DNA of 64,000 bases, taken from NCBI GenBank assembly GCA_965262115.1, contig OZ253496.1:800001-864000 (forward strand), given 5' to 3'. The stretch is from Nitrospinales bacterium. Its GTDB lineage: Bacteria; Nitrospinota; Nitrospinia; Nitrospinales; VA-1. Made by a program: the position numbers and the translations under genes. The notes beneath the pieces were generated by a model. The model was not told where the DNA came from. It searched no databases and worked only from the letters and a program-made list of their open reading frames with translations. This document shows, piece by piece, positions 6,368 to 63,730 of this stretch; position 1 is the first letter of the stretch, and every line of letters begins with the position of its first letter.

Positions 6368-6406
6368 TGTGATATTTAACCTTTGCCTTCATGCCCCGAA
6401 GGGGTA
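6368..6406 (-). mobile_element. 39-nt mini-element copy, inside a partial ~97-bp element
   Basis: Reverse complement taccccttcggggcatgaaggcaaaggttaaatatcaca matches the family consensus. Confidence 0.85.
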
Positions 6407-6527
6407 ATAACTTTCATTGGCTAGCAAAGAGTTTTCTCGGCTGAATAATAAGCCCGTTTCTTCCCCTGCTAAGGGGTGTTATAATTCTTTCTCTAAACAC
6501 AAACGACTTAAAGGGCAAGCTCGCGTT

Positions 6528-6866
6528 ATGAAAATGCATCATCTGGACAAGGAACAAGTAGAAGCGGTCATGCAGAAGGTAAAGGAAGTGGTCGATTCAG
6601 GACAATACCCACCCGATACTATCGAAGCAATTTTTAAGCTTTCGGAAGTGGATGGAGAAAAGTTCCTGGAATCCAAGGCCCACTCCGTTCAGAAGGAAAA
6701 GGTGAATTTTGAAATCGATCCGGAAAAAGGAGTGCGGTTTTTTGATCCTTTCAACTTTTTCACACGCGGAATCTATAAGGATATGGACGGCCTGACCATC
6801 TGGACCACAGACAATCTTAAAGAACCTTGGGAATATGACGAGGACAAAGAAAAGCCATCTCTATAA
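6528..6866 (+). CDS. Hypothetical protein
   Basis: Protein-like ORF; ATG at 6528 chosen because the upstream extension is repeat-derived. Confidence 0.75.
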   Translation: MKMHHLDKEQVEAVMQKVKEVVDSGQYPPDTIEAIFKLSEVDGEKFLESKAHSVQKEKVNFEIDPEKGVRFFDPFNFFTRGIYKDMDGLTIWTTDNLKEPWEYDEDKEKPSL

Positions 6867-6923
6867 ATAGGGTAAGGTAAAACATAACACTTTATGCAGG
6901 CTACGTCCGCATAAAGGCAGGTA

Positions 6924-6974
6924 AAATAATTCCTCCCCTCTCATGAGAGGGTCATGAGAGGGGAGGAATTATTT
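6924..6974. repeat. Perfect 23-bp-arm inverted repeat
   Basis: aaataattcctcccctctcatga-gaggg-tcatgagaggggaggaattattt, between convergent genes. Confidence 0.9.
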
Positions 6975-7027
6975 GCATGTGTGCCAAAGGGATGGCAAAT
7001 TCCAACCAATTAAATTTCCCTCTAAAT

Positions 7028-7064
7028 AAAAAAACCCCCCCGCGCCTGCTGGCACGGGGGGTTT
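7028..7064 (-). terminator. Rho-independent terminator after tatA
   Basis: GC-rich stem (cccccc..gggggg) followed by a U-tract on the minus strand. Confidence 0.75.
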
Positions 7065-7085
7065 AATAATTCAGTACTTTTCTCT

Positions 7086-7469
7086 TTAGCTTTTCTCTTT
7101 AGCTTTTTCCTGATCTTTGCTGTAGTCGTAGGATCCTTTTCTAGGAAGTGCCGCGGTGAAAATATCGGCCTCATCCTTCATAGCTTTATCTTTGGCCTCG
7201 CCTTCTTCCTGAGCTTTCTTGCGAATCGCGGCTTCTTTTTCTTCTTCAGTCATATCTTCTTCGGCTTTGCCTTCTTCAATTTGGGCAGCCTGCTCGCCCT
7301 CTTCAACCTCAGAAGCTTCATCCTCTTCCTGCGCATCCTTCATAGAAGTTTTGAAGTTTTTAATGCTGCGCCCAAAAGCACTGCCGATTTCGGGAAGTTT
7401 TCCCGCCCCGAAAATAATCATAATGATGATCAGAATGACCATCAACTCAGGAAAACCAATTCCCATCAT
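7086..7469 (-). CDS. tatA: Twin-arginine translocase TatA/E subunit
   Basis: [30 protein letters not shown] plus acidic tail. Confidence 0.93.
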
Positions 7470-7612
7470 AATTCATACCCTCCCAGTATTTGATAACAGG
7501 TGTACATCCACCTATAGAAACGATAAATTAATTAGAAGAAGCTCAGTTTATCCCTTTTATATAAGCAATTACAAGGGGGAATAGCCCTGATCGAGGAAAA
7601 ACAGAAAGGTTT

Positions 7613-8278
7613 TCAGCCTGCACGAAGGGAATCGATCGCCTTTTTATAGTCTTTCGCGTTAAAAACCGCCGACCCGGCGACTAACACACCGGCTCCCGCT
7701 TTCGCGATCTCTCCGGCATTTTCGGGATTGATGCCACCATCGACTTCCAGTGCAATCGTATTTTCGTAATGGCTTATGATTTCGCTCAGGTTCTGGATTT
7801 TATCCAGCATGGATGGAATGAATTTCTGCCCACCAAACCCAGGGTTGACCAACATCAGCAAAACAATGTCGATCTCGTGCAAAATTTCCTCCAGTGAAGA
7901 AAGAGGCGTGGCCGGATTCAGCACAACCCCCGCCATCACATCCTTTTCTTTGATCAATTGAATGGTGCGATTCAAATGCGGGCAGGCTTCAACATGAACG
8001 GTGATGATATCAGAACCTGCGGATATGAAGTCGGCAATATAGTTGTCAGCATTTTCAATCATCAAATGCACATCTAACGGCAATTCGGTCACTTTTCGGA
8101 CAGCCTCCACCACCGCCGGGCCAATAGTGATATTGGGCACAAAATGACCGTCCATCACATCCACATGAATCCAGTCAGCTCCCGCCTGTTCTACTGCTTT
8201 GACTTCATCCCCCAACCGGGCAAAATCCGCGGAGAGGATGGAAGGCGCGATGATTACCCCGTCGTTCTTCTCGGCCAT
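7613..8278 (-). CDS. rpe: Ribulose-phosphate 3-epimerase
   Basis: [32 protein letters not shown] motifs. Confidence 0.96.
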
Positions 8279-8385
8279 TGGCTCAATCAACCCCCATTTA
8301 GAAAATAAATCGACCCGAAGCATAGCATAAGCTGATAATTCCTTCCATTTTTATAGGCCGTATCTGGCAAACCCTCTGGCACTCA

Positions 8386-10191
8386 ATGGCTTCTTTCATT
8401 ATAATAATGGGCTTTATGTCTACTATTTTTAAGCCCATGCAGACCACACTCGAAAATCTCCGTGCGAAGATCAAGCACCTCTTGATGCAGGACCACAATA
8501 TGCTATTGCTGGCGGCAGTGATCGGATTTTTGGCCGGGTTGGCATCGACCCTATTTCGCTGGCTGATCGGATTTTTCGGAGATGTTTTTTCCTCCGAGGG
8601 GCTGTCATGGATTGTAATAACCGGTTCTACGATTCCTTTCCTGTTGCCGCTCATGCCAATGATAGGCGGAATCATCACCGGTGTTATCTGCCATTTTTTT
8701 CCCGATGCAGTAAAAGAAAATGGCGTGCACCGGGTCATGCATGCGGTCACCTTGAAAGCCGGAAAGATTCGCAAACGCACCTTACTGACCTGTTCTACCA
8801 CCTCGGCTCTCACCATTGGGTCCGGCGGTTCAGCAGGGCGCGAGGGACCTACCGTGCAGATCGGATCGGCAGTGGGTTCGGCCCTAGGAAACTTGTTCCA
8901 TCTTTCTCATGAACGAGTCCAGGTCTTAGTCGGATGTGGTGCGGCGGCGGGAATCGCCGCCTCCTTCAATGCTCCTTTAGCCGGGGTTCTGTTCGCTCTG
9001 GAGATCATTCTCACGGATTTCACCATCCACACGTTCAGTCCCATCGTTGTTGCATCCGTCATTGGTACGGCGACCGGACGGGCTCTGGAGGGCAACGAAA
9101 TTACTTTCCATGTGCCGGTTCATGAACTGGTCAGCTATTCCGAAATTATTTTTTATGTATTTCTGGGGCTCCTTTGCGGAGTGGTTTCAAAATTGTTCAC
9201 TTTCGCCTATTTCAAGGCTCATGATATTTTTGAAAAAAAGATTCAACTTCCGAAACCCTTGAAACCTGCCCTCGGTGGGCTGATCGTTGGATTCATCGCC
9301 ATATTTTTTCCGGCGGTTCTGGGTAACGGCTACGAGTTCATGGAAAAGGCTCTGCACGGGGATATGTTCTGGGGACTGGCTTTCGCGCTGATTTTTTTGA
9401 AAATCATCAGCACTTCCACAACCCTGGGTTCGGGGGGACTGGGAGGAATCTTCGCACCCTCTTTGTTTGTAGGGGCTATGCTGGGCTCTGCCTATGGAAC
9501 CCTGGTGCACGCGATCAATCCCAGCTTCACGGCTTCGCCAGAGACTTATGCTCTGGTGGGAATGGGAGCCGTAGCAGGAGCAGTGATGCAGGCTCCTTTG
9601 ACCAATATTTTGATGCTGTTTGAGTTGACCAACGATTACACCATTATTTTGCCGATCATGATCACCTGCATCGTTTCGACCTATACCTTTCGCGCCTTCG
9701 ATAAAAATTCCATTTATATCCAGAAACTGCTGAAGGAAGGCATTAATATCAAACATGGTCGGGAAGTTTCCATTCTCAACTCCATCAAGGTCAATGATGT
9801 TTTGAGCAAGGATGTCACGACGGTCCCCGAAGGCATGCCGTTCAGAAAAATTATGGAAACCATTTCATATTCTAAGAACTTTTACTTTCCTGTGGTAAAT
9901 GGTCAGGGAGAGATGTCGGGCATTTTGTCGTTCCACATGGTTCGGGAAATGATTTTTGAAAAAGAACTGGGTGATCTGGTGGTCGCCAACGATTTAAAAG
10001 TCGAATCTGTGATGACCCTCACGCCGGAAAACAACCTCAACGAGGCCATGGAAATGTTCGCCAAACTCGATGTAGAACAGCTTCCCGTAGTCCGCCGGGA
10101 TGATCCCAAGCGAGTGATCGGCATGGTCAATCGAGGCGAAGTGGTCGCCGCTTACAACCGCGAAGTGCTGGTCTCCGGATTTGACCGGTAG
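8386..10191 (+). CDS. ClC-family chloride channel/antiporter with C-terminal CBS pair (start uncertain)
   Basis: GREGP, GGIFAP, FNAPLAG motifs and CBS domains. Confidence 0.93.
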   Translation: MASFIIIMGFMSTIFKPMQTTLENLRAKIKHLLMQDHNMLLLAAVIGFLAGLASTLFRWLIGFFGDVFSSEGLSWIVITGSTIPFLLPLMPMIGGIITGVICHFFPDAVKENGVHRVMHAVTLKAGKIRKRTLLTCSTTSALTIGSGGSAGREGPTVQIGSAVGSALGNLFHLSHERVQVLVGCGAAAGIAASFNAPLAGVLFALEIILTDFTIHTFSPIVVASVIGTATGRALEGNEITFHVPVHELVSYSEIIFYVFLGLLCGVVSKLFTFAYFKAHDIFEKKIQLPKPLKPALGGLIVGFIAIFFPAVLGNGYEFMEKALHGDMFWGLAFALIFLKIISTSTTLGSGGLGGIFAPSLFVGAMLGSAYGTLVHAINPSFTASPETYALVGMGAVAGAVMQAPLTNILMLFELTNDYTIILPIMITCIVSTYTFRAFDKNSIYIQKLLKEGINIKHGREVSILNSIKVNDVLSKDVTTVPEGMPFRKIMETISYSKNFYFPVVNGQGEMSGILSFHMVREMIFEKELGDLVVANDLKVESVMTLTPENNLNEAMEMFAKLDVEQLPVVRRDDPKRVIGMVNRGEVVAAYNREVLVSGFDR

Positions 10192-10198
10192 AACCCTG

Positions 10199-11257
10199 AT
10201 GTCTCACTCCCTCACTTCCCGAATTCCCCGAACCTCCCGAACCTCTTTAACTTTTCTTCTCTGTTTATTTATCCTTATCTCCGGTTGCAGCAAGCCTGAA
10301 TCGTTGATCCACCGAAGATCGCAGTTCTTGATGGGAACTCTGATCGAGATTTCCGTTTTTGAAAAAGATGAAAGCATCGTCCAGACTGCCATCCAGAGTG
10401 CTTTCGACGAAATTCAACAGTTGGAAGGATTGATGAGCACCCATATTCCCGGCTCAGAAGTTTCCAAAATCAATCAAGCCGCAGGAATCAAGCCAATACC
10501 CGTATCTCCCGAGGTGTTCGAGGTGATCGACCGGGCTATTTATTGGGCCGAGAAAACAAATGGAGCCTTGGATATAAGTGTAGGCCCGATTCAGGAGCTT
10601 TGGGAGTTCGAGGACGAACACCCTTCTCTGCCTGGCAAGAGAGCTCTTGAGCAGGCACTTTCCCAAGTGGGCTACGGTAAAATCCGGTTAGAAAACCAGA
10701 CAGTATTTTTAACAGAAAAAGGAATGCGTCTTCATCTCGGCGCCATCGCCAAAGGATACGCCGTGGACCGGGCTATAAATATATTGCAGGAAAAAAATAT
10801 TCATCATGCTTTCATCAATGCGGGAGGCGACCTGAAAACCCTCGGCGGCAGACCCGATAAATCGGCCTGGAAAATCGGCCTGCAACATCCCAGAAAACCC
10901 GAGTCGATCCTGGCGTCCTTTTCCCTTTCAGGAAAAGCTGTCGCCACCTCCGGTGACTACCAGAAATATTTTGATCATGAAGGAACTCGCTACCATCACA
11001 TCCTGAACCCAAAAACAGGATATCCGGTCATCGGTCTGATGTCCGCCACGGTCGTTACCGATACCGTGATGGATGCGGATGCTCTTTCCACAGCCCTGTT
11101 CGTCATGGGCGCAAAAAAAGGTTTGGCTTTTATCGACTCCCTGAAAAACACCGAAGGCCTCCTCGTCAATCAGAACAAAGTTCCCCACTTGTCCCAGGGC
11201 ATGGGGGATTTAGGAAATTTCTCCCTTGAAAGTTTCAAAGAGAACCTCAGCCATTAG
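10199..11257 (+). CDS. apbE: FAD:protein FMN transferase (lipoprotein)
   Basis: Lipobox ISGC; LGAIAKGYAVD, ATSGDY, HHILNPKTGYP, ADALSTA. Confidence 0.95.
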   Translation: MSHSLTSRIPRTSRTSLTFLLCLFILISGCSKPESLIHRRSQFLMGTLIEISVFEKDESIVQTAIQSAFDEIQQLEGLMSTHIPGSEVSKINQAAGIKPIPVSPEVFEVIDRAIYWAEKTNGALDISVGPIQELWEFEDEHPSLPGKRALEQALSQVGYGKIRLENQTVFLTEKGMRLHLGAIAKGYAVDRAINILQEKNIHHAFINAGGDLKTLGGRPDKSAWKIGLQHPRKPESILASFSLSGKAVATSGDYQKYFDHEGTRYHHILNPKTGYPVIGLMSATVVTDTVMDADALSTALFVMGAKKGLAFIDSLKNTEGLLVNQNKVPHLSQGMGDLGNFSLESFKENLSH

Positions 11258-11538
11258 ACTATGCCCAATTTCGTTTGGGTGGCAACGGTCGGGAAACAAG
11301 AAGGCGAGCATGGGGTTCGCTTCCATACCCTCTCCATAAGCTTCAAAGTAAGTGACAAACAAGTCGGGAAAGCGGTCGTGAACGAAGGAATGGCATAGGA
11401 TTTATAGTGGAATACCGGCTCAAACCTGGAAAACCTGAGAACCAACTCGACAAACCCGAAAAAGAAAAAGACCACACCTACGGAGAACCAAAAAGACTGA
11501 ACGGTTTTTAATCTTTCTCGTGGGGCCACAAGCCACCC

Positions 11539-14007
11539 CTAAAGTTTGGAAGGAGAAAATCGTTTTAACAAAAGAGAGTTTCCAACTACCGAAACAGAAC
11601 TCAAAGACATGGCTATAGCGGAAAACACAGGTTTCAGGAGGACACCATAAAAAGGATACAAGACCCCCGCCGCTATAGGAATTCCCAGCACATTATAAAA
11701 GAAAGCCCAGAAAAGATTTTGCCGGATTTTCGCCAGGGTTTGTCGGCTCAACTCAATAGCCTGGGGCACAGCCTGAAGGTCGGAGGTGACCAGAGTGACG
11801 TCGGAAGCCTCCATCGCGACATCCGTACCGCTCCCCAAAGCAATGCCAACAGTGGATTCGGCCAATGCAGGAGCGTCATTGATTCCATCGCCCACCATCG
11901 CGACCTTGCGGCCTTCTGCCATCTGTTTTCTAATTTCATCCCGCTTCCCCGAAGGCAGGACTTCCGAGATCACATCATCAATACCCAATTGCCGGGCAAC
12001 TGCCTGTGCGGTTTTCCGGTTATCACCCGTCACCATCATCACTTTCAGGCCCATCTTTTTGAGACGGTGAACGCATTCTTTGGCATGGGGTTTTAATTTA
12101 TCGGTGGTAGTGATGATGCCCTCAATCTTTCCATCAACACTTAATATCATCGGCGTTTTTCCCTGCCCGGACAGCTTTTCCAGTTCATCGCTCATAGAGG
12201 AAAAATCAATTTGTTGTTCCTGCATTAGTTTAATATTGCCCAGGAATACATTTTGACCGTCTATTTTTCCCTGCACCCCGAAACCGGGCAGAGCTTCAAA
12301 ATCGACAACTGTTTCAAATCGGAGGTTGTGCTTTCTCGCTTCAGCAACTACAGCCTGAGCTAAAGGGTGTTCCGATTTTTTTTCCAGAGAACCGGCCAGC
12401 ACCAGCAAATGGTCCGCATCCAATACAGATGTAGGAGACAAAAGCACATCGGCCACTTCTGGTTTGCCACAAGTGAGGGTTCCCGTTTTATCAAACACAA
12501 TCGTATCCAATTTTTCTGCCTGCTCCAAAGCCTCCCCTCCCTTGATCAGGATGCCCATCTCCGCACCCTTTCCGGTTCCGACCATGATCGCTGTAGGAGT
12601 GGCAAGGCCCAATGCGCAGGGACAGGCAATGATCATGACAGAAATTAATACCATCAAGGCAAAGAGAAACGGCGTAGTCGGTAAGGGACCAAATGCATTT
12701 CCAAATCCCCACCAGAATGCGAAAGCCAGAAGAGCCAGGCCAATCACCACCGGCACAAAGATTCCGGCAATTTTATCCACAAGCCTTTGCACAGGTGCTT
12801 TCGATCCTTGCGCTTGTTCCACCAGTTGAATGATCTGTGCCAGCACAGTATCTTTACCCATGCGGGTCACACGCATTTTAAAAAATCCGGTTTTGTTGAG
12901 GCTGGCCCCGATCACTTCATCGCCGGATTTTTTTTCTACCGGAACACTTTCACCCGTCAACATCGACTCATCAATAGAAGATTGTCCCTCAACCAGAATT
13001 CCATCCACAGGAATTTTTTCTCCGGGCCGGACCAGGACCACATCTCCCTGGACCAAATCCTCCACGCTGATTTCAAGCTCCCTACCCTCTCGTTCAACAT
13101 GGGCGGTTTTAGGCTGGAGCCCCATTAATTTCTTGATAGCGGAAGAAGCACTGTGCTTGGCACGCGCTTCCATCCAACGCCCAAGCAGGACAAGAGCGAT
13201 GATCATGACCGAGGTATCGTAATAAACTTCAGAAAATCCCACCAAGCTCGGGAAAAAGGTAACCCAAACGCTGTAAAGATATGCCGCCGAAGTGCCTACG
13301 GCAATCAGCGTGTTCATATCGGCGTAACCATGACGGAACCCGTTGAACGCCCCACGATAAAACTGCCAGCCACCAAAAAACTGCACCGGAGTTGCCAAGA
13401 TGAATAAAGTGATATTCAGCGTATTCGATTCGATATTGAACAACGCACTCATGGAAAGAAACATGACCACCAGGCTGGTCAGTCCACTAAAAATCAGTTT
13501 CAGTTTAAGCTCAGCCAGGTTTTTGAGATAGCGTCCCTCATCCCCTTCCGATGAAACATCTTGAGATTTTTCAGGCAAAAGGCGATAGCCGGCTTCTTCC
13601 AAAGCGGATTGCAAGATTTTAAAATCGACCAGAGCAGGGATGTAATCAACCAGCACCTGTTCGGTCGCCAGGTTCACATCGACTTCATGAACCCCTTCCA
13701 CAGACGCAAGTTTTTTCTCGACCCTTGAGACGCAGGAGGCGCAGGTCATACCTTCTATAGCAAACGTCGTGCTCTGCCGGGGAACTTCAAATCCCAGTTT
13801 TGCGATTGTCTCGGGGAACTGGCTGGCCGATATTTTTTGTGGATCAAACTCAATGGAGGCCGCCTCTGCGGCAAAATTGACATGGACAGAGTCCACTCCT
13901 TCCAGTTCGCCAACCTTCTTTTCGATCCGTGCGGAACAACTGGAGCAACTCATGCCCTTAACCGGCAGGGTTATGTTCTCTTTATTTTTGGATTTAAGAC
14001 CCGTCAT
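11539..14007 (-). CDS. copA: Copper-translocating P1B-type ATPase
   Basis: Two GMxCxxC HMA domains, [23 protein letters not shown] and MxxSS motifs. Confidence 0.96.
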
Positions 14008-14123
14008 GACGAACCTATATTAATGAATAATACTGTATCAGGATACACACTTTCGAGAACCGAATCTAATAACTATATTTGGAAAATTGGGAAGGTTGCT
14101 TGGTAGAATTAAAGAAAGAGGCC

Positions 14124-14522
14124 CTATTTATTACTAAACAGGGTTTTCAGGGTAACCACTCCATAACCAATAAGCAGGAGGGCGATCAGTCCACTGGAAA
14201 AAGAGTTCTGGCTCATAGCGCTGGTGAACACAAAAACACCCACTGCGCTCAAAATCACACCGAGGACAAAAAAACTAAATGTGCGATAAATCGGGATTTT
14301 GCTTTCCAGAGAATCGCGTTTTTGTTTGAGTTGCCACCGCCAACGAAGGATATAATAGGTCTGGCGAACCCAGTTGAACAATCCACTGTCTTCAATCAGG
14401 CTGGTCTTACAATACATGCAATGGGTGTCCGTATTGCGATTGGGGAACCCGCAATTCAGGCATATTTTGCTGTCCTGGTTTTGATTTAAAATCACAGGTT
14501 CTTTTTCCGGCTTATCCATCAA
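14124..14522 (-). CDS. Hypothetical membrane protein with N-terminal zinc-ribbon-like CxxC..CxxC
   Basis: CLNC/CMYC and two C-terminal hydrophobic helices. Confidence 0.75.
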   Translation of the reverse strand: MMDKPEKEPVILNQNQDSKICLNCGFPNRNTDTHCMYCKTSLIEDSGLFNWVRQTYYILRWRWQLKQKRDSLESKIPIYRTFSFFVLGVILSAVGVFVFTSAMSQNSFSSGLIALLLIGYGVVTLKTLFSNK

Positions 14523-14637
14523 AACTCCCAGGCGAAGAACCTCCGCCGGCCAGCATGACGCTGGACTCAGTTAGCAATAGCTTTTTACCGCTAGCAATCA
14601 TTCTTCATTGGCCCCGCGCCTAGTGGCCCTCTAGCGA

Positions 14638-14766
14638 GAGACCTTTGCGTAAGTCTATAAATCAGAAAAGCGAGATGCTTCGACAAGCTCAGCATGACAA
14701 TAAAAGGCTATTTTGTCATTCTGAGGAGCTATTGCAACGAAGAATCTTGGGTTATGCAAAGGTCTC
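14638..14766. mobile_element. 129-bp MITE with 15-bp TIRs and 9-bp target duplication
   Basis: TIRs gagacctttgcgtaa / ttatgcaaaggtctc (14 of 15 match); direct repeats ctctagcga at 14629-14637 and 14767-14775. Confidence 0.9.
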
Positions 14767-14858
14767 CTCTAGCGAGGGAGGTAACTGGGCAGGGGTTTCT
14801 TTAAGCCGCGAAACCCTTTGCTCACCAAATAAAATTATTACCCCTTCGGGGCACGAAA

Positions 14859-15055
14859 TACCCGTGCCGGGCATGAAGGCAAAGGTAAAATATCACATAC
14901 CCGTGCCGGGCATGAAGGCAAAGGTAAAATATCACATACCCGTGCCGGGCATGAAGGCAAAGGTAAAATATCACATACCCGTGCCGGGCATGAAGGCAAA
15001 GGTAAAATATCACATACCCGTGCCGGGCATGAAGGCGAATGAAGAGGACATCACA
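14859..15055 (+). repeat. Head-to-tail array of the mini-element: 4 identical 39-nt units plus one 41-nt variant
   Basis: tacccgtgccgggcatgaaggcaaaggtaaaatatcaca x4, then tacccgtgccgggcatgaaggcgaatgaagaggacatcaca; lies inside another copy (14839-15074). Confidence 0.95.
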
Positions 15056-15229
15056 TCTGAGGAAGAATATCACGTGCTCATTGGCCACACGCTTAGTGGA
15101 TCGGCACATTTCGCCAAAAAGATTAAAAAAATCACGCTTAACGGGTAAGTTTAAATTTTATTACTTATGGAAAGCACTGTCAATCTCCATCGTTGAGAAT
15201 AAATCTATCCCCGCGGAGATCTATTAATC

Positions 15230-16087: not shown

Positions 16088-16103
16088 AGAGCAAACTTTA
16101 TAA

Positions 16104-17303: not shown

Positions 17304-17455
17304 AGTCCAATTATAAGTGTTAATTTTGGAGCAAGCAATGTTTTTAGACAGGCTGAGCGATTGACTTTCCACCCTTCATTTCCTAAAGTATCGCCATTAT
17401 TTCCTATAGGAATCCAGCTGCTTTCAACGCTTTCACCGTACCTGGGGCACACGCT

Positions 17456-18008: not shown

Positions 18009-18187
18009 CCCTCTAGCGAGGGAGGCAACTGGGCAGGGGCTTCTTTAAGCCGCGAAACCCTTTGCTCGCCAAATAAAGTTATTACCCCTTCGGGGCACGA
18101 AATACCCGTGCCGGGCATGAAGTTTAAGGAAGAGGACATCACAGCTACGGAAGAATATCACGTGCTCATTGGCCCCACGCCTAGTGG
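18009..18187 (-). mobile_element. ~97-bp element with two nested mini-element copies (18083-18162 containing 18103-18143)
   Basis: Near-identical to the composite at 14627-15099, without the MITE and the tandem array. Confidence 0.88.
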
Positions 18188-26962: not shown

Positions 26963-27081
26963 CATGGTATTTGTGCTATCCACTTCCTTAAACTTCATGA
27001 GCGTATGATATTTCCAACCTCGGACTCATCCCCGCAAGGGGTAGCACGGGTACTTCCTAAACTTCGTGCCTCAGAGGGGTA
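26963..27081 (-). mobile_element. Three mini-element copies nested in one another
   Basis: Inner 27004-27043, middle 26972-27052, outer 26963-27081; each rejoins to a 38-41 nt family member. Confidence 0.85.
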
Positions 27082-27732: not shown

Positions 27733-27772
27733 TAACCCTGCGGGGCATGAAGGCCAGGGTAGGAACATGACA
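27733..27772 (+). mobile_element. 40-nt mini-element inserted in a gggcggtgacgc..gcgaccgcc palindrome
   Basis: Empty host copies at ~28295-28319 and ~29791-29814. Confidence 0.8.
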
Positions 27773-27929: not shown

Positions 27930-28295
27930 ATGAAAAAGATATTTTTTGCGGTTCTATTGCTAGTGACGGGAATCTTATTTTCTTCCACCGCTTTTGCCCA
28001 CGATGGTGAAGCCCATGCTAAAGATATGTATGAAGAAGGCAGTGGCGGTTCCTCAATGGATATGGGCCACAAAGCTGGTGCAACGGATCATGAATATAAA
28101 GGTGAACATGCCGGTGGAGCGGAGCATTCCAAAGAATATTATGAAAAGAAATACGGCAAATACGAACATGAAAAACAAGGAATGCAGGAAGAAGGTAGCG
28201 GTATGAAAGAAGAAGCCATGAAGATGAGAGAAATGGAACATCAACGCATGGAAGAAGGCAGCAGAATGCAACCCGCTAGCGAGGGAGGCCAATAG
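27930..28295 (+). CDS. Secreted low-complexity His/Met/Glu-rich protein with repeated EEGS motifs
   Basis: RBS AGGAG, signal peptide ending AFA, three EEGS repeats. Confidence 0.85.
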   Translation: MKKIFFAVLLLVTGILFSSTAFAHDGEAHAKDMYEEGSGGSSMDMGHKAGATDHEYKGEHAGGAEHSKEYYEKKYGKYEHEKQGMQEEGSGMKEEAMKMREMEHQRMEEGSRMQPASEGGQ

Positions 28296-29439: not shown

Positions 29440-29478
29440 TACCCCTCTGGGGCACGAGAGTTAATGAAGAATATCACG
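29440..29478 (+). mobile_element. 39-nt mini-element copy
   Basis: tacccctctggggcacgagagttaatgaagaatatcacg. Confidence 0.88.
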
Positions 29479-29619: not shown

Positions 29620-29740
29620 CGTCATCGCGAGCGACAGAAAGGAGCGCGGCGATCCAGTCTTTCTGGATTTACCCCTGCGGGGCACGAAAATTAATTAGGA
29701 GATATCACGGCTTCGTCGCCTCTGGCTCCCCGCAATGACG
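29620..29740. repeat. REP-like palindrome cgtcatcgcg...cgcaatgacg carrying a 40-nt mini-element (29670-29709)
   Basis: Second copy at 44339-44484; partial copy at ~27811-27846. Confidence 0.85.
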
Positions 29741-44338: not shown

Positions 44339-44484
44339 CGTCATCGCGAGCGACTGTGTGAAATTCTTCATTTGCCTTCACGCCCCAAAGGGGTAAAAGG
44401 AGCGCGGCGATCCAGTCTCTCTTGCTTTATCGAGGCTAAGGAAAAATATCACGCCTTCATCGCCAGAGGCTCTTCGCAATGACG
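44339..44484. repeat. REP-like palindrome with a mini-element (44357-44395, minus) and a partial copy (44431-44453)
   Basis: Host aligns to 29620-29740. Confidence 0.85.
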
Positions 44485-46781: not shown

Positions 46782-46820
46782 CGTGATATTCTTCCTAAGC
46801 TCTCGTGCCCCGAAGGGGTA
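46782..46820 (-). mobile_element. 39-nt mini-element copy
   Basis: cgtgatattcttcctaagctctcgtgccccgaaggggta. Confidence 0.9.
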
Positions 46821-52886: not shown

Positions 52887-52904
52887 AGAAACAGGTCCCT
52901 GGTT

Positions 52905-53285: not shown

Positions 53286-53307
53286 CGGTCTCACCTTATT
53301 GATCAAC

Positions 53308-53355
53308 AGGGTTACAGAATACATTGTCCTTAGGGTTACAGAATACATTGTCCTT
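53308..53355. repeat. Exact 24-bp tandem duplication
   Basis: agggttacagaatacattgtcctt x2. Confidence 0.95.
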
Positions 53356-53410
53356 ATTGCGTCGCTTAATGCGTCTATTCCTTACGGTTTTTTACGTTAA
53401 CACCCGGTAT

Positions 53411-55791: not shown

Positions 55792-57560
55792 AGAAAAATC
55801 TCCATTTCTCTGGCCAATGACTGGTTCTGGAACAGGCCCGCATAGACTCTACCTGCACGCGTCAGCGAAACATGACTGCCCTGTTCAAGTATTTTTCCCG
55901 CATCCATCACGATTATCTGGTCCGCATCACGAACAGCCGATAATCGGTGGGAAATAATCAGGGTGGTGGTTTGACTCGGCTGGCCTTGGATATTCCTTAA
56001 AATTTCTTCTTCGGTGTCCGAGTCCAGGTTTGAAAACGCGTCATCGAGAATCAGCACTTCGGGTTTCTTGATCAAAGCACGGGCCAGGGCCACCCTTTGC
56101 TTCTGGCCTCCCGACAACGAAACCCCACGCTCGCCGATCAACGTCTCCAATCCCTCCGGGAACCGTGCCACATCTTTGCTCAATCCGGCGATCCGGATAA
56201 TTTCTTCCAACTCAAGGTCTGTGGCAGGTCCCCTTCCCAACACGATATTGTCACGAATGGATGTAGAAAATAAAAAGGGTTCCTGACTCACATAACCTAT
56301 GGATTCTCGTAGTTTTTGCAGAGAGATTTCTTTTATGTGGCGGTTTCCTATCAATAAAGCACCTGCAGTCGGATCATAAAAACGTAAAAGCATTTGAGCC
56401 AAAGTGGTTTTTCCAGAACCGATCACACCCACCACTCCCAGCGTCTGGCCTCTGGGAATTTTAATATCGACTCCCCTTAAACTTGGTGTTTCTGCATCGG
56501 GGTAGGTAAACTGCAGTCCTTGAAACTCTATGTCACCCATTGGCTCCAGAGAACCAGCTCCTTCAAGGGCCGGTTTTATTTCAGGCTGGGCCTTAAAGAT
56601 TTCATGAATACGACTCATGGCCGCCATCCCTTTCTGGGTGAGGTTAAAAACATATCCGATTCCCATCATGGGCCATGAAAGAAGCATCAAATAACCATTA
56701 AATGCGACAAAAGATCCCAACGTCATGGAGCCGCCAATCACTGCCTTTCCTCCCAACCACAAAGAAAGCATCGCCGCCACCCCCATAACAAACACCATGG
56801 TGGGCGTGAAAATTCCAAACATTCGCGTGACATGCAGGTTTTTTTTGATGTATTCGTTATTCAGTTCTGCAAATTTTCTTTTTTCATTTTCCTCCTGGAC
56901 AAATGCGTGAAGAACCCGGATGCCAGCAAGGTTTTCCTGAACGTGACCTGTTATCAAAGCCAAATGCTCCTGCACCGCTTTATGACGCTTGCCGATTTCC
57001 TTAACAAAATAAAAAAACAAGAACGAAATAAAAGGTAGCGGCAGTAAAACCTTGAGAGCCAGATCAGCATTGATCCAGCTCATCATGCTCATGGCGGTGA
57101 TAATGACAAAAACCGCATCGATGAGAATCAACACCCCCAGCCCGATAAATTCCCTAACCGCCCGCAGATCATTGGTGGCGCGCGACATGATATCCCCTGT
57201 CGTTTGTTTCAGGTACCAGGCACGGTCTAAAGTTAAAAGATGGCTGAACAGCCGGTTCAGGATATCAAATTCAATTTTTCGGGAGGCTCCGAACATATAC
57301 ATCCTCCAGCCATAACGGCCCACCACAAGAAATAGAGCAATCAGCAAAAGAAGGAACGTATATTTCAAAAGAATTTCTGAAGAAGGCTTCCCCGGCAGGA
57401 CATCAATAAACTCCTTGATCAACCAGGGCACAACCAACGTCATGGAGTCCGTAATGATTAAAGCCACAATGCCTAATACCAGTTCCCTCTGGTATTTGGA
57501 TATATACGGCCAGAATGATTTTAAGTTTTCCAATTTGAATTCTTTTCCTCTTCCCACCAA
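55788..57560 (-). CDS. ABC exporter, fused TMD-NBD (MdlA-like, degenerate site)
   Basis: GSGKT, LSGGQKQR, LDDAFS, ISHR. Confidence 0.93.
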   Translation of the reverse strand: MVGRGKEFKLENLKSFWPYISKYQRELVLGIVALIITDSMTLVVPWLIKEFIDVLPGKPSSEILLKYTFLLLLIALFLVVGRYGWRMYMFGASRKIEFDILNRLFSHLLTLDRAWYLKQTTGDIMSRATNDLRAVREFIGLGVLILIDAVFVIITAMSMMSWINADLALKVLLPLPFISFLFFYFVKEIGKRHKAVQEHLALITGHVQENLAGIRVLHAFVQEENEKRKFAELNNEYIKKNLHVTRMFGIFTPTMVFVMGVAAMLSLWLGGKAVIGGSMTLGSFVAFNGYLMLLSWPMMGIGYVFNLTQKGMAAMSRIHEIFKAQPEIKPALEGAGSLEPMGDIEFQGLQFTYPDAETPSLRGVDIKIPRGQTLGVVGVIGSGKTTLAQMLLRFYDPTAGALLIGNRHIKEISLQKLRESIGYVSQEPFLFSTSIRDNIVLGRGPATDLELEEIIRIAGLSKDVARFPEGLETLIGERGVSLSGGQKQRVALARALIKKPEVLILDDAFSNLDSDTEEEILRNIQGQPSQTTTLIISHRLSAVRDADQIIVMDAGKILEQGSHVSLTRAGRVYAGLFQNQSLAREMEIFL

Positions 57561-57712
57561 CCAAAGTTATTTTCCTAGTCCTTTGATGGCTTTTTAGCTA
57601 GAATAGGTGCGGGTTTGAGTAAAATTCAAATGCTTCTCAAAGCAAACATTGTATCCTGTTTAATCCTTAGAGACCCACAATCACCTGAACCATCAAAAAG
57701 AAAGACCGTCTT

Positions 57713-59137
57713 ATGTACGGAGTAATATTGGCCGGGGGAAGCGGCACCCGGTTCTGGCCTAAAAGCCGCGAACAAAGCCCAAAACAATTGCAAAAAATCG
57801 TTGGCACCGGGACCATGCTTCAAAACACCGTTCAACGCTTACTGCCCTTGATTTCTATTGAAAATTTATACCTGGGCACCAACCATCAGCAAGCGGACGA
57901 GACTCTTCGCCAGCTAGATTCCTACGGTTTTTTTCCCGATCATCTCATGGCAGAACCCTGTAGCAGAAATACCGCATTAGCAATCGGTTTGATGGCAAAA
58001 GTAATCATCGAAAAAGATCCTGATGCGGTCATGGGTGTTTTTTCTGCTGACCATGTTGTAGCGAACTCCGAGAACTTTATCAAGACACTTCAAAAAGCAG
58101 AAACTATAGCCAAAAAGAGTTATCTCGTTACCCTTGGTATCCCGCCGACCCGGCCCGAAACCGGATTCGGTTACTTGCAACAGGGAGCTGAAATAGAAGA
58201 GGGAATCTATCAGGTAGTACGTTTTGTAGAAAAACCTGGGCGGCCTGAGGCTGAACAATATTTAAAGAATGGTCATTACTTTTGGAATTGCGGAATCTTC
58301 GTCTGGAAGGCTTCTACCATTCTTGAGGAATTGCAACAGCATGCAGAAAATATTTATTCACAGCTTGAAACTATTGCCAACTGCATCCAGAACGCAAAAG
58401 GAAAATCCGCCTATCTGGAACTGGATGAAAGAGGGCGCAACCTTTTTTCTTCCCTGCCTAGTCTTTCCATCGACTATGCGGTCATGGAAAATTCATCAAA
58501 GGTAGCCCTCATCCCCGCAGATATCGACTGGAACGATGTCGGTGCCTGGAACGCTTTGGACGATGTATCCAAAAAAGATTCTAAAGGCAATATCATCAGC
58601 GGAAATGTTCTGGCCCAAGATTGTAGCAACTCCATAATCCAGGCACAAAACCGGCTCATCGCTGTATTGGGATTAAAAGACACAATCGTGGTGGACAGTC
58701 CCGACGCCCTCCTGGTCTGCGCCAAGGAGCGTTCCCAGGATGTAAAAAAACTGGTCGAGTCCCTTAATGAAAACGGCCACCCTGAAGGCAAACAGTCCGC
58801 TACCGTTAATAAACCCTGGGGATCTTATACCGTATTGGAGTCTGGTTCCTCTTATGTGCTAAAGCGTATCGAAGTCTTGCCTGGAGAAGCACTCAGCCTG
58901 CAATCCCATCAGCACCGCAGTGAACATTGGACTGTTGTCTCAGGTTCAGCAGAAGTGGTACTGAACGAAGAAACTTTTCAATTAAAAAGCAATGACACCA
59001 TCACCATCCCCAAAAATGCCAAACACAGACTGGGAAACCCCGGTTCTGATCTGCTAGTAATTATTGAAATTCAGGTTGGCCATCTCCTGGATGAATCCGA
59101 CATCTCACGTTACGAAGACCGCTACGGTCGTTGCTGA
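57713..59137 (+). CDS. manC: Mannose-1-phosphate guanylyltransferase/mannose-6-phosphate isomerase
   Basis: LAGGSGTRFWP, FVEKP, DVGAW, KPWG, SLQSHQHRSEHW cupin. Confidence 0.95.
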   Translation: MYGVILAGGSGTRFWPKSREQSPKQLQKIVGTGTMLQNTVQRLLPLISIENLYLGTNHQQADETLRQLDSYGFFPDHLMAEPCSRNTALAIGLMAKVIIEKDPDAVMGVFSADHVVANSENFIKTLQKAETIAKKSYLVTLGIPPTRPETGFGYLQQGAEIEEGIYQVVRFVEKPGRPEAEQYLKNGHYFWNCGIFVWKASTILEELQQHAENIYSQLETIANCIQNAKGKSAYLELDERGRNLFSSLPSLSIDYAVMENSSKVALIPADIDWNDVGAWNALDDVSKKDSKGNIISGNVLAQDCSNSIIQAQNRLIAVLGLKDTIVVDSPDALLVCAKERSQDVKKLVESLNENGHPEGKQSATVNKPWGSYTVLESGSSYVLKRIEVLPGEALSLQSHQHRSEHWTVVSGSAEVVLNEETFQLKSNDTITIPKNAKHRLGNPGSDLLVIIEIQVGHLLDESDISRYEDRYGRC

Positions 59138-59176
59138 TCTATTCCGCCCTTAAAATAGCGTGCGATGACCGGAACT

Positions 59177-60709
59177 TTAATTTTTCGGCAGTGAAATCAA
59201 AAAATAGTTTTTAATGGACTTTGAATCGACCAGTCGGTTGGCGTGTGCGCCGGCTTGATCCTTGGCCGGGAATTGTCCGACCCTGATTTTATACCAGTGG
59301 CCTCCGGCTCTTCGGACGGCCTTGACGACGTAGAGGCCTTCGACCCCTTTCTTTTTAAGACGCCGGATCATCCTATCCGCTTGTTTGGCAGAAATGACCG
59401 CGGCAATTTGAATGGTGTAGACCCTGTCTTCCTTCTTTGTTTGTGCTAGTTTTGATGCAGGCATCGATGTTAAAGATGAAAGCGACAGTTTATCCTCATT
59501 TTTCGAAACCAATTCACTGAAGCCAAGAACCAGCATAATTAAAACGGAAAGAACCGCAAAGCTGACCAGTTTGGCCCTCAACGAGAGTTCTCCGAACTGG
59601 ATGAGGCCTTCAAGAACCTGAAGAAGAACCCATTTAAATCCAATTAAAATTTTGCGGGTCAGCCAACCGAACCCTCTCCTTAATATTGTCATTCGGCCTG
59701 CAACCAGACCCATCTCCACTTTCAGGCGTTTCAAATCCTGAAGATCTTCCCGGCGGAAAAGTTTTATCTTTTTCAGTTTGGAAGCGATCCGGTTTTCCTC
59801 AGACTGTCTTCTAGCCTCCGCCTGCTGGTCAGAACTCAAGCCCGCAAACACTTCTCCGCATTTCTGGTGCAATTCAGGCGCGACCCCGGCAAGGTTTCCC
59901 TCACAATAACTATGGGCAAGATAATTCTTAATTTCTTCTTCCTCTTTTACTGAATAATTCAATGCAAACAGGTAAAACCTCAAAGCCAACTCATCCGTTC
60001 TTTTGTGAGCCAGGTAAATAGGCAGGGCAAATTGGATAATTTTACTGGAAAGCTCACTCTGATCTTCCAACGCACTCAAAAATAGCGGTTCGACTTTTCC
60101 GGACCATTGTCCAGCCTCAAGAAACAGACTGGACAGGTAATGAGTTAAAGTGGGGTCATGAATTTCCTCCTGCTGCACCATGACGAGAAGCAGATCCATT
60201 TCCTCCCGGGTGAGTTCCCGACCCTGGTTCAGAATAGCAAGGAGCGGCTTGCGAAAACGCGAATCCCTGGGGCTTTGCAAAAAGGCCTGCACATAAATAT
60301 TCAAGGCCCTGGGGGTTTCATCCCCAATTGATAGCAGGTAGTCCGCGTATAACAGAACTCCAAGAATTCGATACTGTTTTCCCGTTTCCGGTAAAAAATA
60401 AGAGGAGTAGGTAAAATTCAGGAGATTCTCATACTGGTTTTTAATATCGTCTGGGTTCGACTGAGGAGGAACATTTTTAATAAAGTGCAGAGCGTTAAAA
60501 AAACGTTGTTCCCCCACCATCCCATACGCAATGAACCCAAAAAACAGGCAGACGAGTAAGATCGCCCATTGGATCGGAACATCGTCAAACAGAACGTTTG
60601 GAAGCGCCACCTCGTGCAGAAAAAACAGAAGCGTAAAACCCAATCCAAAAATCAGGATTAACGAGACTGCAATTCGGGCCAGATAAAATTTAAGGGTCTG
60701 GTACAGCAT
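59177..60709 (-). CDS. Membrane protein with C-terminal SPOR domain
   Basis: TM helices; YTIQIAA..WYKIRVGQF. Confidence 0.85.
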   Translation of the reverse strand: MLYQTLKFYLARIAVSLILIFGLGFTLLFFLHEVALPNVLFDDVPIQWAILLVCLFFGFIAYGMVGEQRFFNALHFIKNVPPQSNPDDIKNQYENLLNFTYSSYFLPETGKQYRILGVLLYADYLLSIGDETPRALNIYVQAFLQSPRDSRFRKPLLAILNQGRELTREEMDLLLVMVQQEEIHDPTLTHYLSSLFLEAGQWSGKVEPLFLSALEDQSELSSKIIQFALPIYLAHKRTDELALRFYLFALNYSVKEEEEIKNYLAHSYCEGNLAGVAPELHQKCGEVFAGLSSDQQAEARRQSEENRIASKLKKIKLFRREDLQDLKRLKVEMGLVAGRMTILRRGFGWLTRKILIGFKWVLLQVLEGLIQFGELSLRAKLVSFAVLSVLIMLVLGFSELVSKNEDKLSLSSLTSMPASKLAQTKKEDRVYTIQIAAVISAKQADRMIRRLKKKGVEGLYVVKAVRRAGGHWYKIRVGQFPAKDQAGAHANRLVDSKSIKNYFLISLPKN

Positions 60710-62768
60710 TTCTTTTTTCAGGTTGTTTGGAATTCATGGACCCATTTATCGGATCTGGAAGAAGCCCGGTTTCATCCGGCTCCGTGTCTTCAGGCAAAAC
60801 AGGAGGCACAGAAAGGTCCACACCTTCTTTAACCGCGACCTGCAAAGTCTCAAGGGAAAACTCATCGGCAAGATAACCTGTCTGCACATCCACGATGGCA
60901 AATTTAACTTTTTCTGGAACGGGAAATTTCACCGGGCTTTTCCCCTCCAGCACCTTCTGCATAAAAAACACCCAGATGGGAGCGGCGGCACTGGCACCGG
61001 TCAAACCTTTACCAGATTTGACTTTCATGGGTTCATTATTATCAAAGCCCACCCAGACCGAAGCTGAGATGTCTTTTGTAAAAGCATTGAACCACGCATC
61101 CTTAAAGTCATTGGTCGTTCCCGTTTTGCCCCCGGCGGGGTGACGAAAACCCATCCTTCTTACCACCCGTCCGGTGCCTCCATCTATCACTCCTTGCATC
61201 ATGTTCAGAAGCGGCAAAAGGGAATCAGGCAAAAACTGTTGCACCCCCTGATAGTAATGCTCATAAAGCCGGTTGCCCTGGAAATCCTCAATGCGCTGGA
61301 TCAAATAAGGTTCATTATAAATTCCCAGGTTGGCGATAACACTGTAGGCGGATGCCATTTCATAAGGGGATAAACCGGAAGTCCCCAGAGCAAGGGAAAG
61401 GTTTTTACCTAACGGACTTTTAATACCAAACTGCCGTGCCGTACGAATCACTTTTTCCGACCCGACCTCATTAATCAGTTTCGCAGAAATAATGTTAATG
61501 GATTTCATCAGAGCTTTTTTAAGAATAATACTTCCTGCAAACTCTTCATCGAAATTCTGTGGACTCCAAGGTTCGCTACCGGGAACATCCATGGTCAGCG
61601 GCTCGTCCACCACCACTGTAGCGGGTGAATAACCCAACTCCTCCATAGCCGTAAAATACACAAACGGTTTGAAGGAAGAACCAGGAAGGCGATTGTTCGA
61701 TACCGCCCGATTGAATTGACTGTAGGAGTAGTCTCTTCCACCAAGCATGGCCCGCACAGCGCCGCTTTTGTTTTCTATCGCCACTAATGCCACCTGAAGT
61801 GGACCAGCACCCGGCTCCTTGACGACCCTGCCTTCCAAAGCCTCCAAATGATTGCGGGCACTTTTAAAAGCAAGCTTCTGATAACGCGAATCCAATGTGG
61901 TGAGAATTTTTAAGCCGCCAAAATGCACAAATTCTTTGCCATAATCCCTTTCGATTTGCTCCAGCACCTGATCAACAAAATAAAGATTGGGATCCGAATC
62001 TACCCGGGGATTAACCAGATCAATATTGGACTGAAGGGCCAACTCTTTCTCTTCAACGGTAATCAGGTTTTCACTGACCATCCGGTTCAACACATACTCC
62101 GTTCTTTTCATCGCTCTTTCATAATGCGAGAACGGATTGGCATTATTGGGAGAGTTGGGGAGGCCAGCAAGAAGAGCCGATTGCAGCAAAGTCAGATCCT
62201 TGGCACGTTCTCTAAAATAGACTTGCGCCGCCTCTTCCACGCCATAAGCGCCGCTACCGAAATATATCTGATTGCAATAGGCTTGAAGAATCTGGTCTTT
62301 ATTGAAAGTCGCCTCCAATTGGAAAGCAATCAAAAGCTCCTTGATCTTACGTACCCAATTTCTCTCGAATGAAAAAAACAGGTTTTTGGAAAGTTGCTGG
62401 GTGATCGTGCTTCCCCCCTGAGCAATCCTTTTTTCACGAAGGTTGGTCAATAACGCACGCACCAATCCCCTGTGGTCTATTCCGCTATGTTGATAAAACC
62501 GGGAATCTTCAACGGCAATGATGGCTTTTGTAAAAAAGGGCGCAATATCCTCAAGAGCGATGGGGTGCCTCTCACCAAGAACCTTAATGCGCTCCCCATC
62601 CGAAGAATAAATTTCTGTCGGAAGGCTCAGGTTGATATGTTGCAGGTTTTTGGGAAGCTGGGGCAAGTCCTGGTTTAACCAGTAATACAGACCCGCTACA
62701 ACCAGAACCACAAAAAGAATTAAAGTTACCAGAACCAGATTCAGGGTATGGAGTAAGCGACCGGTCAA
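60690..62768 (-). CDS. Class A penicillin-binding protein (PBP1A family)
   Basis: EDSRF, GGSTITQQ, RKIKE, SSFK, SIN, KTG. Confidence 0.95.
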   Translation of the reverse strand: MTGRLLHTLNLVLVTLILFVVLVVAGLYYWLNQDLPQLPKNLQHINLSLPTEIYSSDGERIKVLGERHPIALEDIAPFFTKAIIAVEDSRFYQHSGIDHRGLVRALLTNLREKRIAQGGSTITQQLSKNLFFSFERNWVRKIKELLIAFQLEATFNKDQILQAYCNQIYFGSGAYGVEEAAQVYFRERAKDLTLLQSALLAGLPNSPNNANPFSHYERAMKRTEYVLNRMVSENLITVEEKELALQSNIDLVNPRVDSDPNLYFVDQVLEQIERDYGKEFVHFGGLKILTTLDSRYQKLAFKSARNHLEALEGRVVKEPGAGPLQVALVAIENKSGAVRAMLGGRDYSYSQFNRAVSNNRLPGSSFKPFVYFTAMEELGYSPATVVVDEPLTMDVPGSEPWSPQNFDEEFAGSIILKKALMKSINIISAKLINEVGSEKVIRTARQFGIKSPLGKNLSLALGTSGLSPYEMASAYSVIANLGIYNEPYLIQRIEDFQGNRLYEHYYQGVQQFLPDSLLPLLNMMQGVIDGGTGRVVRRMGFRHPAGGKTGTTNDFKDAWFNAFTKDISASVWVGFDNNEPMKVKSGKGLTGASAAAPIWVFFMQKVLEGKSPVKFPVPEKVKFAIVDVQTGYLADEFSLETLQVAVKEGVDLSVPPVLPEDTEPDETGLLPDPINGSMNSKQPEKRNAVPDP

Positions 62769-63664
62769 GGGCTTTCTCTCAAGGAAGGTGGAGTTCCATT
62801 AGAACTTGAATCAGAAATATCCGCTTTTTCAATTTGGGACATCATATTGTTGGCCAATTCCACAGCCACAGGAATCAAGAGAATCCCCGTGTAGTAATCG
62901 GTGTCGTACTCAACCCCAAACAGCAAGTGTTGGACAGGTTCTCCAGCAGGCAAATCCGAAATGCCCACACGGGTGACATGATAATTCTTTCCCAAAAACC
63001 AGCGGGGTTCCGGGAAAACTGCTTTTTGGGTGGTTGCGTCCAGGGATTTTAAAACAGGAAGAAACTCGAAAATTGAGAAAATCCGGTTTTCAGTAAAATT
63101 CGCATCTTCAAGGGTTCCCCGTTTAACGGTCCGCGTGGCCTGAACCTCAAATAACGTATCTACAGATAAGAACAATTCATGAATGGGAATATTTTGGCGA
63201 TCAATGAATTGCAGGGTGATCCAGGGACCAAATCGTTTCAAGAAAACCCGATCCCAGTTTCTCCTTGAGTCCAGATCAACCAGGTCGTAAGAAGAAATGA
63301 TTTGCTCCGACCACGGCCCAGGAAAATCATAATAGAGTTGGAGAAACTTTTCCCGGGAAACAACAAGGGGAAACCCTGGAGACAGCCCTTCAAACAAATG
63401 CTTGAAGGAAGAAATTCCCAAAGCCGTTTCTTCCTGAAGATCCAGCGAGGATCGAATGGACTTTATCTTGGCTTGCGCTACCAGAGACTGCCGGTCCCGC
63501 TCCCACATTCTACCCAATTGAGGCCTTTTGTGGTTTTGCCATTTTAAGTAATAACCGACACTTTTTTCAAACAGGTTGGTATAAAACTCAAGGGAAAGGA
63601 ATGCGGAAAGAACAATCAACCCGGCGGCAACATGCCATAGCTTTCGGACACCGGCAAATTTCAC
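62765..63664 (-). CDS. Hypothetical membrane-anchored protein
   Basis: 299-aa ORF overlapping the PBP start; N-terminal TM. Confidence 0.78.
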   Translation of the reverse strand: MKFAGVRKLWHVAAGLIVLSAFLSLEFYTNLFEKSVGYYLKWQNHKRPQLGRMWERDRQSLVAQAKIKSIRSSLDLQEETALGISSFKHLFEGLSPGFPLVVSREKFLQLYYDFPGPWSEQIISSYDLVDLDSRRNWDRVFLKRFGPWITLQFIDRQNIPIHELFLSVDTLFEVQATRTVKRGTLEDANFTENRIFSIFEFLPVLKSLDATTQKAVFPEPRWFLGKNYHVTRVGISDLPAGEPVQHLLFGVEYDTDYYTGILLIPVAVELANNMMSQIEKADISDSSSNGTPPSLRESP

Positions 63665-63689
63665 TGAATATTATCTCACGGTAGTTTTA

Positions 63690-63730
63690 TACCACTCCGG
63701 GGCATGAGGTTTAAGGAAAAGGACATCACA
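63690..63730 (+). mobile_element. 41-nt mini-element copy
   Basis: taccactccggggcatgaggtttaaggaaaaggacatcaca. Confidence 0.82.

Follow-up and report, generated by a model that had tools for sequence, protein, structure and literature searches.

A mobile element of 39–41 bases at hundreds of sites in Nitrospinaceae genomes, with two ends that meet on one internal arm

A stretch of 64,000 nt from a Nitrospinales bacterium (assembly GCA_965262115.1, contig OZ253496.1, positions 800,001–864,000; hereafter the window, and the genome G000) was analysed for a short repeated element that starts with TACCCC. The element is real and mobile, and it is present at hundreds of sites in Nitrospinaceae genomes without target duplication. 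Covariation shows that both of its ends meet on one internal arm, and our favoured reading, held with moderate confidence, is that it is moved as a single strand, with both ends folded on one internal splint, in trans by a HUH-type nickase of the IS200/IS605/REP kind. An original prediction from the window sequence had described a minimal mobile unit, and the element was indeed found to be non-coding, 39–41 bases long and polymorphic between G000 and its relative G013. That prediction had missed the likely active reverse strand, a pairing between base 16 and the last base, altered flank bases, and an IS110 that targets the element.

The exact ends were supported by a grid of alternative boundaries, among which exact removal was the one that most frequently gave back an empty word already present (63 of 242 copies at 9+9 bases, a count that takes in tandem contexts). 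Across 144 site clusters, target duplications of 3, 4 and at least 5 bases were seen in 2, 1 and 0 clusters, respectively, with duplications of 3 or more at chance level; 1- and 2-base flank matches slightly exceeded the shuffled values (46 vs 35.1 and 13 vs 8.0, respectively). The proposed absence of terminal inverted repeats and of target duplication held up at genome scale. The three empty hosts put forward in the window are also confirmed, apart from one or two substitutions; these hosts are, however, repeats of paralogous and not orthologous kind. A search for filled and empty orthologous sites between G000 and G013 retained 14 pairs with no extra base (8 of 255 G000 copies and 6 of 331 G013 copies) under a stricter genome-wide test in which most copies lacked an orthologue spanning both junctions. 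G013 lacks the copy at 29,670–29,709, and its orthologous site contains no additional base. Contigs from 6 sequencing runs were compared with two stretches, and among the matches listed there was no join that omitted exactly one copy.

The genome-wide profile scan, run as a weight matrix, confirmed the predicted abundance, with 242 full copies in G000 (one contig, 2.68 Mb) and none in one block-shuffled genome. A looser tail threshold gave 255 copies in G000 and 331 in G013 (2.46 of 2.86 Mb, 86%, covered), of which 576 of the combined 586 were 39, 40 or 41 bases long. Most of the full copies in G000 (222 of 242) lay outside long open reading frames (ORFs). In a scan of species genomes, all 80 loci listed of at least 124 found came from Nitrospinota. 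Of the genomes examined for the full pattern, 20 of 22 from the genus, 25 of 36 from the family and none of 24 from other families carried it; the head pattern occurred in 40 of the phylum's 120 genomes, among them 3 of 21 belonging to one other family. Copies were also embedded in an IS3 and in miniature transposable elements with inverted repeats (MITEs), and since 73 of 255 copies in G000 and 124 of 331 in G013 were enclosed by two MITE ends, under a loose definition of such a pair, hitchhiking accounts for part of the copy number. No match was found in plasmids (72,556) or phages (50,697). Three loci were found on two viral contigs, one of them just past a major capsid-like gene, and viral contigs are a possible route of the element between lineages. 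Rfam gave no match at the gathering score (0 in the window), the one match having an E value of 0.92 and 21 of 50 bits, and literature searches, which did not reach subscription journals or ISfinder, found no earlier description for Nitrospina. As a separate observation, one MITE occurs in G000 and G013 with approximately 100–145 ends each; its inverted ends begin GAGA(C/G)CTTTGCATAA, it has direct repeats of approximately 9 bases, and it carries CGTC-type repeat arrays and the element. A small coiled-coil-like gene (G013 1840238–1840753 and at least 6 further copies) is likewise set amid CGTC-type repeat and element arrays.

The fold of the element was deduced from the 586 copies of G000 and G013. 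The loop reads T-N-C in 561 of them, that is, G-N-A on the opposite strand, and the second stem position is a G·T wobble on the opposite strand and an A·C mismatch on the strand first described. Bases 6 and 10 are complementary in 545 copies although base 10 is G in only 423, which indicates a three-base loop and not an RNA UNCG tetraloop. GNA triloops are unusually stable in DNA. The active strand is therefore likely to be the reverse one, with the inferred form 5'-X GTGAT...(pyrimidine-rich loop)...TTC X' TG CCCC GNA GGGG TA-3'. Base 16 is complementary to the last base in 553 of the 586 copies, compared with 247 expected from the columns, a count that overstates the number of independent events because the copies are related. 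The forms T/A, C/G and A/T were seen first, and the G/C form was then predicted; it was borne out by 8 of 8 matching copies in five genomes and, in a set of 120 genomes, by every copy that matched (9 of 9, from 3 genomes), none of which ended in T; one exception, an IS110-split copy in G000, has G with G. Two genomes of another family (G055 and G067) carry a variant with a changed tail ending CTTG or CTGG, in which this pair is kept and all copies lie in a single host repeat type. On the reverse strand, the pair prolongs the hairpin stem over the end-to-end junction. Its mean probability in a folding program, over 314 distinct sequences, was 0.70 as a DNA circle and 0.01 as a line, the latter value being too low because the program ignores coaxial stacking. 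The meeting of both ends on one arm fits a free circle and a junction folded in place alike.

The target preferences were examined in 144 distinct flank clusters. A loose motif was seen, with A/T at −2 (121 clusters), not T at +2 (141), C/T at +3 (109) and C at +5 (92); in an earlier set of 109 clusters, each motif position exceeded all nearby offsets. The flanks were repeats in 44 of 70 G000 clusters, compared with 20 of 150 intergenic control points. Host repeats included CGTC-type palindromes, CTAG-type hairpins, DUF559-associated repeats and the element itself, entered in either orientation (labels partly after excerpts of PMC3733652). The statement that the element has no fixed target therefore stands for a 4–5-base word, but the sites follow a loose motif and repeats are strongly preferred. 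Averaged folding of empty sites gave no fixed hairpin position, and insertion was unbiased with respect to adjacent genes (65 vs 67). The variable middle was not convincing as a target guide, with no register-free signal (5.16 vs 5.17). Head-to-tail arrays had been taken as a rolling-circle trait; however, 67 of 77 junctions join different variants and 6 near-identical ones, so that the arrays are weak evidence for a rolling circle and repeated insertion fits better. The four identical units of the window (14,859–15,055) are an exception among these junctions.

Host bases 3–5 beside one end are sometimes altered. Of the 14 filled/empty pairs, three have doubtful alignments, one resembles ordinary decay and four are robust. 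Over the whole set, mismatches at +1 to +6 number 25 of 84, compared with 7 of 84 for the left side, 39 of 392 for positions farther away and 8 of 108 for filled/filled pairs. Three of the four robust alterations are GG to CT at +3/+4. At hairpin-loop sites, the same CT was found in 20 of 29 distinct filled sites, which differ in inner variant and host, and in 0 of 527 empty ones. Within the window, the right part of the middle copy of a nested set has CGCTCA in place of the expected CGGGCA (27,003–26,998). The right part of the outer copy at 18,083–18,162 begins GCTACG, a form that follows an inner copy in 23 cases and stands in an unsplit context in two. Bases unseen in empty hosts made up 24 of 171 at +3 to +5 and 16 of 252 on the left (p 0.01). 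The changes lean to C at +3 and +5, with +1 and +2 mostly host-like, and some altered flanks look like those that other host families carry naturally, NGCTC and GCTAC for example. Against alteration, a cruder genome-wide host-consensus test gave equal results on the right and left (31 of 107 vs 27 of 104), most sites are unaltered, and not every filled site is an independent case. A template from which the new bases could have come was not found, and regular carriage of the donor's right flank was not supported, with near-identical elements rarely sharing right flanks.

Under the favoured reading, the arm C X' TG CCCC would be the pairing partner of both the 3' end (GGGGTA) and the 5' end (X G), giving a nicked dumbbell, which one strand transfer would close into a circle while the donor is rejoined. 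Insertion would be the reverse reaction at single-stranded hairpin repeats. The hairpin-end junction would be made directly by the 3'-OH of the element, and the other junction may sometimes be completed by repair, which could account for altered host bases 3–5 on that side alone. The enzyme would come from elsewhere and may visit the lineage only at times, and many copies would later hitchhike in MITEs and IS3. The originally suggested HUH enzyme acting in trans remains favoured, although none was found.

Several results weigh against this reading. The commonest 4-mer beside the element occurs in only 8 of 144 clusters on the left and 7 of 144 on the right, which leaves no fixed word of 4–5 bases, and a guide–target signal at one register was at best weak (z of approximately 3 among 13 registers) and was not accepted. 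IS608-type elements show a leading/lagging-strand bias, and none was found here (p 0.82). Plain HUH transfer does not predict changed flank bases. The pairing evidence is also tempered by the relatedness of the copies and the underestimated value for the line, by 2 of 9 window copies that lack the base-16/last-base pair even when folded as circles, by near pairs of copies (189 with both pair bases changed, 63 and 49 with one alone), and by the G055 and G067 copies, in which the next pair is lost. The proposed long elements that share both ends around an ORF were not found in G000 or in the covered part of G013. Y1 transposases were present in 16 of 70 family genomes and in none of the element-rich G000, G013 and G007, a distribution that does not track the element; 23 Y1 loci were read, of which none was bracketed by the element and one had a pair nearby.

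Regarding the enzyme, 47 ORFs of the window were compared with Pfam and gave no candidate, as had been reported for the window. Many relatives are incomplete, and gene absences given here mean not found among the genomes searched. No gene of a recurring family lay between element copies in G000, G013 or low-copy genomes, and head-only and tail-only pieces, considered as ends of a long form, were judged to be truncations. Among eight mobile families followed in relatives, none has a distribution that tracks the element. IS110 was present in 11 of 41 genomes and absent from G007; reverse transcriptase was present in 13 of 41, broken in G000 and not found in G007 or G019; and DUF559 was present in 42 of 61, including element-free families, and absent from G007. 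Among five rich genomes, Y2, an integron-integrase-like recombinase and TnpB were present in 1, 3 and 1, respectively. Cas1 was present in 9 of 70 genomes, with 0 of 6 in an element-rich genus and two that are element-free. All of these were rejected as movers. GIY-YIG gave 7 matches in G000, the sole genome searched, of which 4 were read and none was bracketed by the element. The only recombinases common to the five rich genomes searched were XerC/XerD-like. Other repeats differ between G000 and G013 though neither genome has a Y1 match, so a missing gene is compatible with movement by a Y1 or visiting HUH enzyme. Two loci were noted during this search. An integron-integrase-like tyrosine recombinase (G000 C1 2164651–2165382, 288-residue frame) has repeats directly after it and was not found in G013 or G007. 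Three cas1 genes lie in G000 (C1 765604–769545, 2126375 and 2643996), with a short CRISPR array beside only one of them in a crude search.

Tentatively, the same self-splinted strand could instead be handled by an unrecognised or housekeeping non-HUH enzyme, with its 3'-OH attacking the target and host repair finishing the other junction. The failure of the eight mobile families to track the element favours this, as does the pattern of one clean and one sometimes changed junction (25 of 84 vs 7 of 84 mismatches), and the occurrence of the element in 20 of 22 members of the genus and in 6 of 6 from a second genus is in keeping with a gene retained by vertical descent. It has no candidate gene, however, with only XerC/XerD-like recombinases shared by the five rich genomes. 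We consider it unlikely that the element spreads by short-homology homing, in which template switching or strand invasion copies the element from a filled repeat to an empty look-alike, a few donor flank bases are carried along, and most events need no dedicated enzyme. The targets are repeats, the altered flanks resemble those of other host families (NGCTC, GCTAC) and the changes lean to C at +3 and +5, all in line with homing, but the ends are exact and fixed across 144 distinct flank clusters, +1 and +2 stay mostly host-like while +3 to +5 change, and the end-to-guide pairing is left without explanation. Moreover, when near-identical elements from different hosts are paired, just 12–17% of the pairs agree at 4 of 5 right-flank bases, compared with 6–7%. 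Copying of an RNA intermediate at a nicked target by a reverse transcriptase, the other enzyme originally suggested, is very improbable: many copies allow the strand first described to be read as an RNA hairpin of UNCG-like form, and one-sided flank change is typical of target-primed copying, but the reverse transcriptase is broken in G000 and was found in neither G007 nor G019, base 10 is not a fixed G and covaries instead with base 6, and no bias with respect to neighbouring genes was seen.

We give almost no credence to the element being a deletion derivative (MITE) of an IS110 with the same end sequences: 24 near-identical IS110 copies begin with TACCCC and end with the element's tail, but their CT-core junctions lie inside the element hairpin, their bodies are approximately 99% identical while the surrounding element parts vary, the guides in their left end match the element as a target, and G007 has 80 element copies and no IS110 match. 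This IS110 encodes 316 residues, and its 24 long copies in G000 only seemingly share the ends of the element. It is located inside the element at a duplicated CT of the hairpin, and its junctions run on into element sequence in 25 of 26 cases on the left and 26 of 26 on the right; it is thus a parasite of the element, not its parent. Its left end contains words that match both halves of the target and of the donor junction, placed in internal loops of two predicted hairpins, and its predicted bridge RNA is aimed at the element hairpin. Pieces with the same target guide were found in G013, G016 and G019, and some copies are frameshifted and carried within an IS3 that holds the element. According to excerpts of PMC11208160, IS621-type IS110 elements have a CT core, a long left end with target and donor guides, and a repeat as landing site, all of which are seen here. 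In contrast to IS621, the predicted target guide matches the element hairpin and not an enterobacterial REP.

Compared with known systems, the element behaves much as a terminal-only PATE or an IS200/IS605 end does, but it lacks the fixed target word and the related IS605 ends of these systems. Excerpts of PMC3119063 describe 52-base, one-palindrome PATEs of Haloquadratum that appear mobile though the IS200 transposases are mostly pseudogenes, with strain-specific PATE and IS605 insertions and almost no intact transposase; PATEs and SMRs there move with few or no intact enzymes. The element resembles these PATEs in lacking inverted ends and duplication, in having a palindrome followed by a variable stretch and a conserved terminal oligonucleotide, in its polymorphism between strains, in having few or no intact transposases, and in the insertion of other elements into its palindrome. 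It also has an internal DNA guide that covaries with the terminal motif (553 of 586 copies and 9 of 9 predicted). It differs in being smaller (39–41 bases), in that its terminal oligonucleotide is internal and not a target word, and in that one arm splints both ends. It has one hairpin, no parent IS605 with matching ends was found, TnpB is missing from 4 of 5 rich genomes, and no fixed target word of 4–6 bases is read by the guide.

For IS200/IS605, excerpts of PMC10055086 and PMC8266576 describe a single-strand circle, no duplication, and a DNA guide that covaries with the terminal motif. As at IS608/ISGst ends in the same excerpts, the guide lies 5' of the hairpin and covaries with the terminal base, the arrangement is strand-specific, and a circle would restore the junction. 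The element differs in having one hairpin and not two, a target not read by the guide, and no transposase gene. The IS608 guide works by a cross-pairing rule; the element instead extends the stem antiparallel. With REP and REPIN sequences (excerpts of PMC3733652, PMC3116915 and PMC8266576) it shares its size, hundreds of intergenic copies (a high-copy hairpin of 20–40 bases, with 222 of 242 copies outside long ORFs), a short stem with a 3-base loop, and use as an IS110 target. Unlike them, it has no GTAG or CGTC tag 5' of the stem, where TTC-X' stands on the likely active strand; it moves as a singlet with exact ends and lands in CGTC-type and other repeats, and no RAYT gene flanked by the element was seen in the genomes searched. 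IS91/Helitron features were likewise scarce (Y2 in 1 of 5 rich genomes, near-identical junctions in 6 of 77; other Rep families were not searched), and the terminal inverted repeats and duplication that define a MITE are absent. The SDRs of Nostocaceae (excerpts of PMC5861425, PMC4390886 and PMC2884548) are also very small, mobile, precisely inserted and present in tandem copies, with an unknown mover, but they are approximately 20 bases long, SDR5 has a fixed HIP1 target, and they are described from Nostocaceae only; they are set apart here by these descriptions and not by sequences.

CGTC repeats without a dedicated transposase are described in excerpts of PMC3733652, and the spread of tiny repeats without a linked transposase is an open question, the movers of SDRs being unknown as well. 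With exact ends, a covarying fold, strain-level filled/empty pairs and a one-sided footprint, the element offers a 39-base oligonucleotide usable as bait and substrate for its enzyme. A scarless inserter that needs just 39 bases in cis would be of interest as a tool, and the IS110 provides a new, predicted natural bridge RNA aimed at a mini-element. A more far-reaching picture, to which we lean only weakly and which would place the element among the smallest self-contained units of mobile DNA, is a 39-base strand splinted into a dumbbell circle by one arm and moved by an enzyme class new to transposition, which would insert without duplication at loose hairpin sites and rewrite host bases 3–5 at one end, with its own bridge-RNA-guided IS110 parasite.

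Every element copy reported for the window was present at its position (Table 1). The list was right as to places, but the copies at 14,839 and 18,083 are split outer copies, and those at 26,963, 26,972 and 27,004 (−) form a nested trio.

Table 1. Element copies in the window and the IS110 of G000. Window positions count from the first base of the window; the strand is that of the original orientation (TACCCC first), and the likely active strand is the opposite one.
Feature	Position	Strand	Remarks
Full 39-base copy	6368–6406	−	
Outer copy	14839–15074	+	14839–14858 + 15056–15074; broken after base 20 by five inner copies
Five head-to-tail copies	14859–15055	+	four identical of 39 bases and one of 41
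Outer copy	18083–18162	+	18083–18102 + 18144–18162; broken after base 20
Inner 41-base copy	18103–18143	+	
Three decayed copies nested in one another	26963–27081	−	by eye from the printed sequence
Nested set, outer copy	27081–27053 + 26971–26963	−	by eye
Nested set, middle copy	27052–27044 + 27003–26972	−	by eye
Nested set, inner copy	27043–27004	−	by eye; in hairpin loop of middle copy
40-base copy	27733–27772	+	in GGCGGT/ACCGCC hairpin repeat; empty paralogue at approximately 28295
39-base copy	29440–29478	+	
40-base copy	29670–29709	+	within CGTC-type palindromic repeat; orthologous site in G013 empty
39-base copy	44357–44395	−	within CGTC-type repeat; empty paralogue at approximately 29620
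Tail-only remnant	44431–44453	+	
39-base copy	46782–46820	−	
41-base copy	63690–63730	+	followed by a decayed head
IS621-like IS110	G000 C1 132063–133013		23 similar copies

Other features were noted beside these copies. A small secreted-looking gene adjoins a DUF559 gene in the window (27,930–28,295), with a related second copy near G000 2140004 and no synteny with G013. Two-hairpin (REPIN-like) repeats of 93–101 bases are present in G000 and absent from G013 (G000 alignments from 289357, 2175939, 1161131 and 2043996), several of them without target duplication. Repeats of 95 bases also differ between the two genomes (G000 alignments from 2415534, 1909731 and 2204459), and presumably resemble IS200-type ends.

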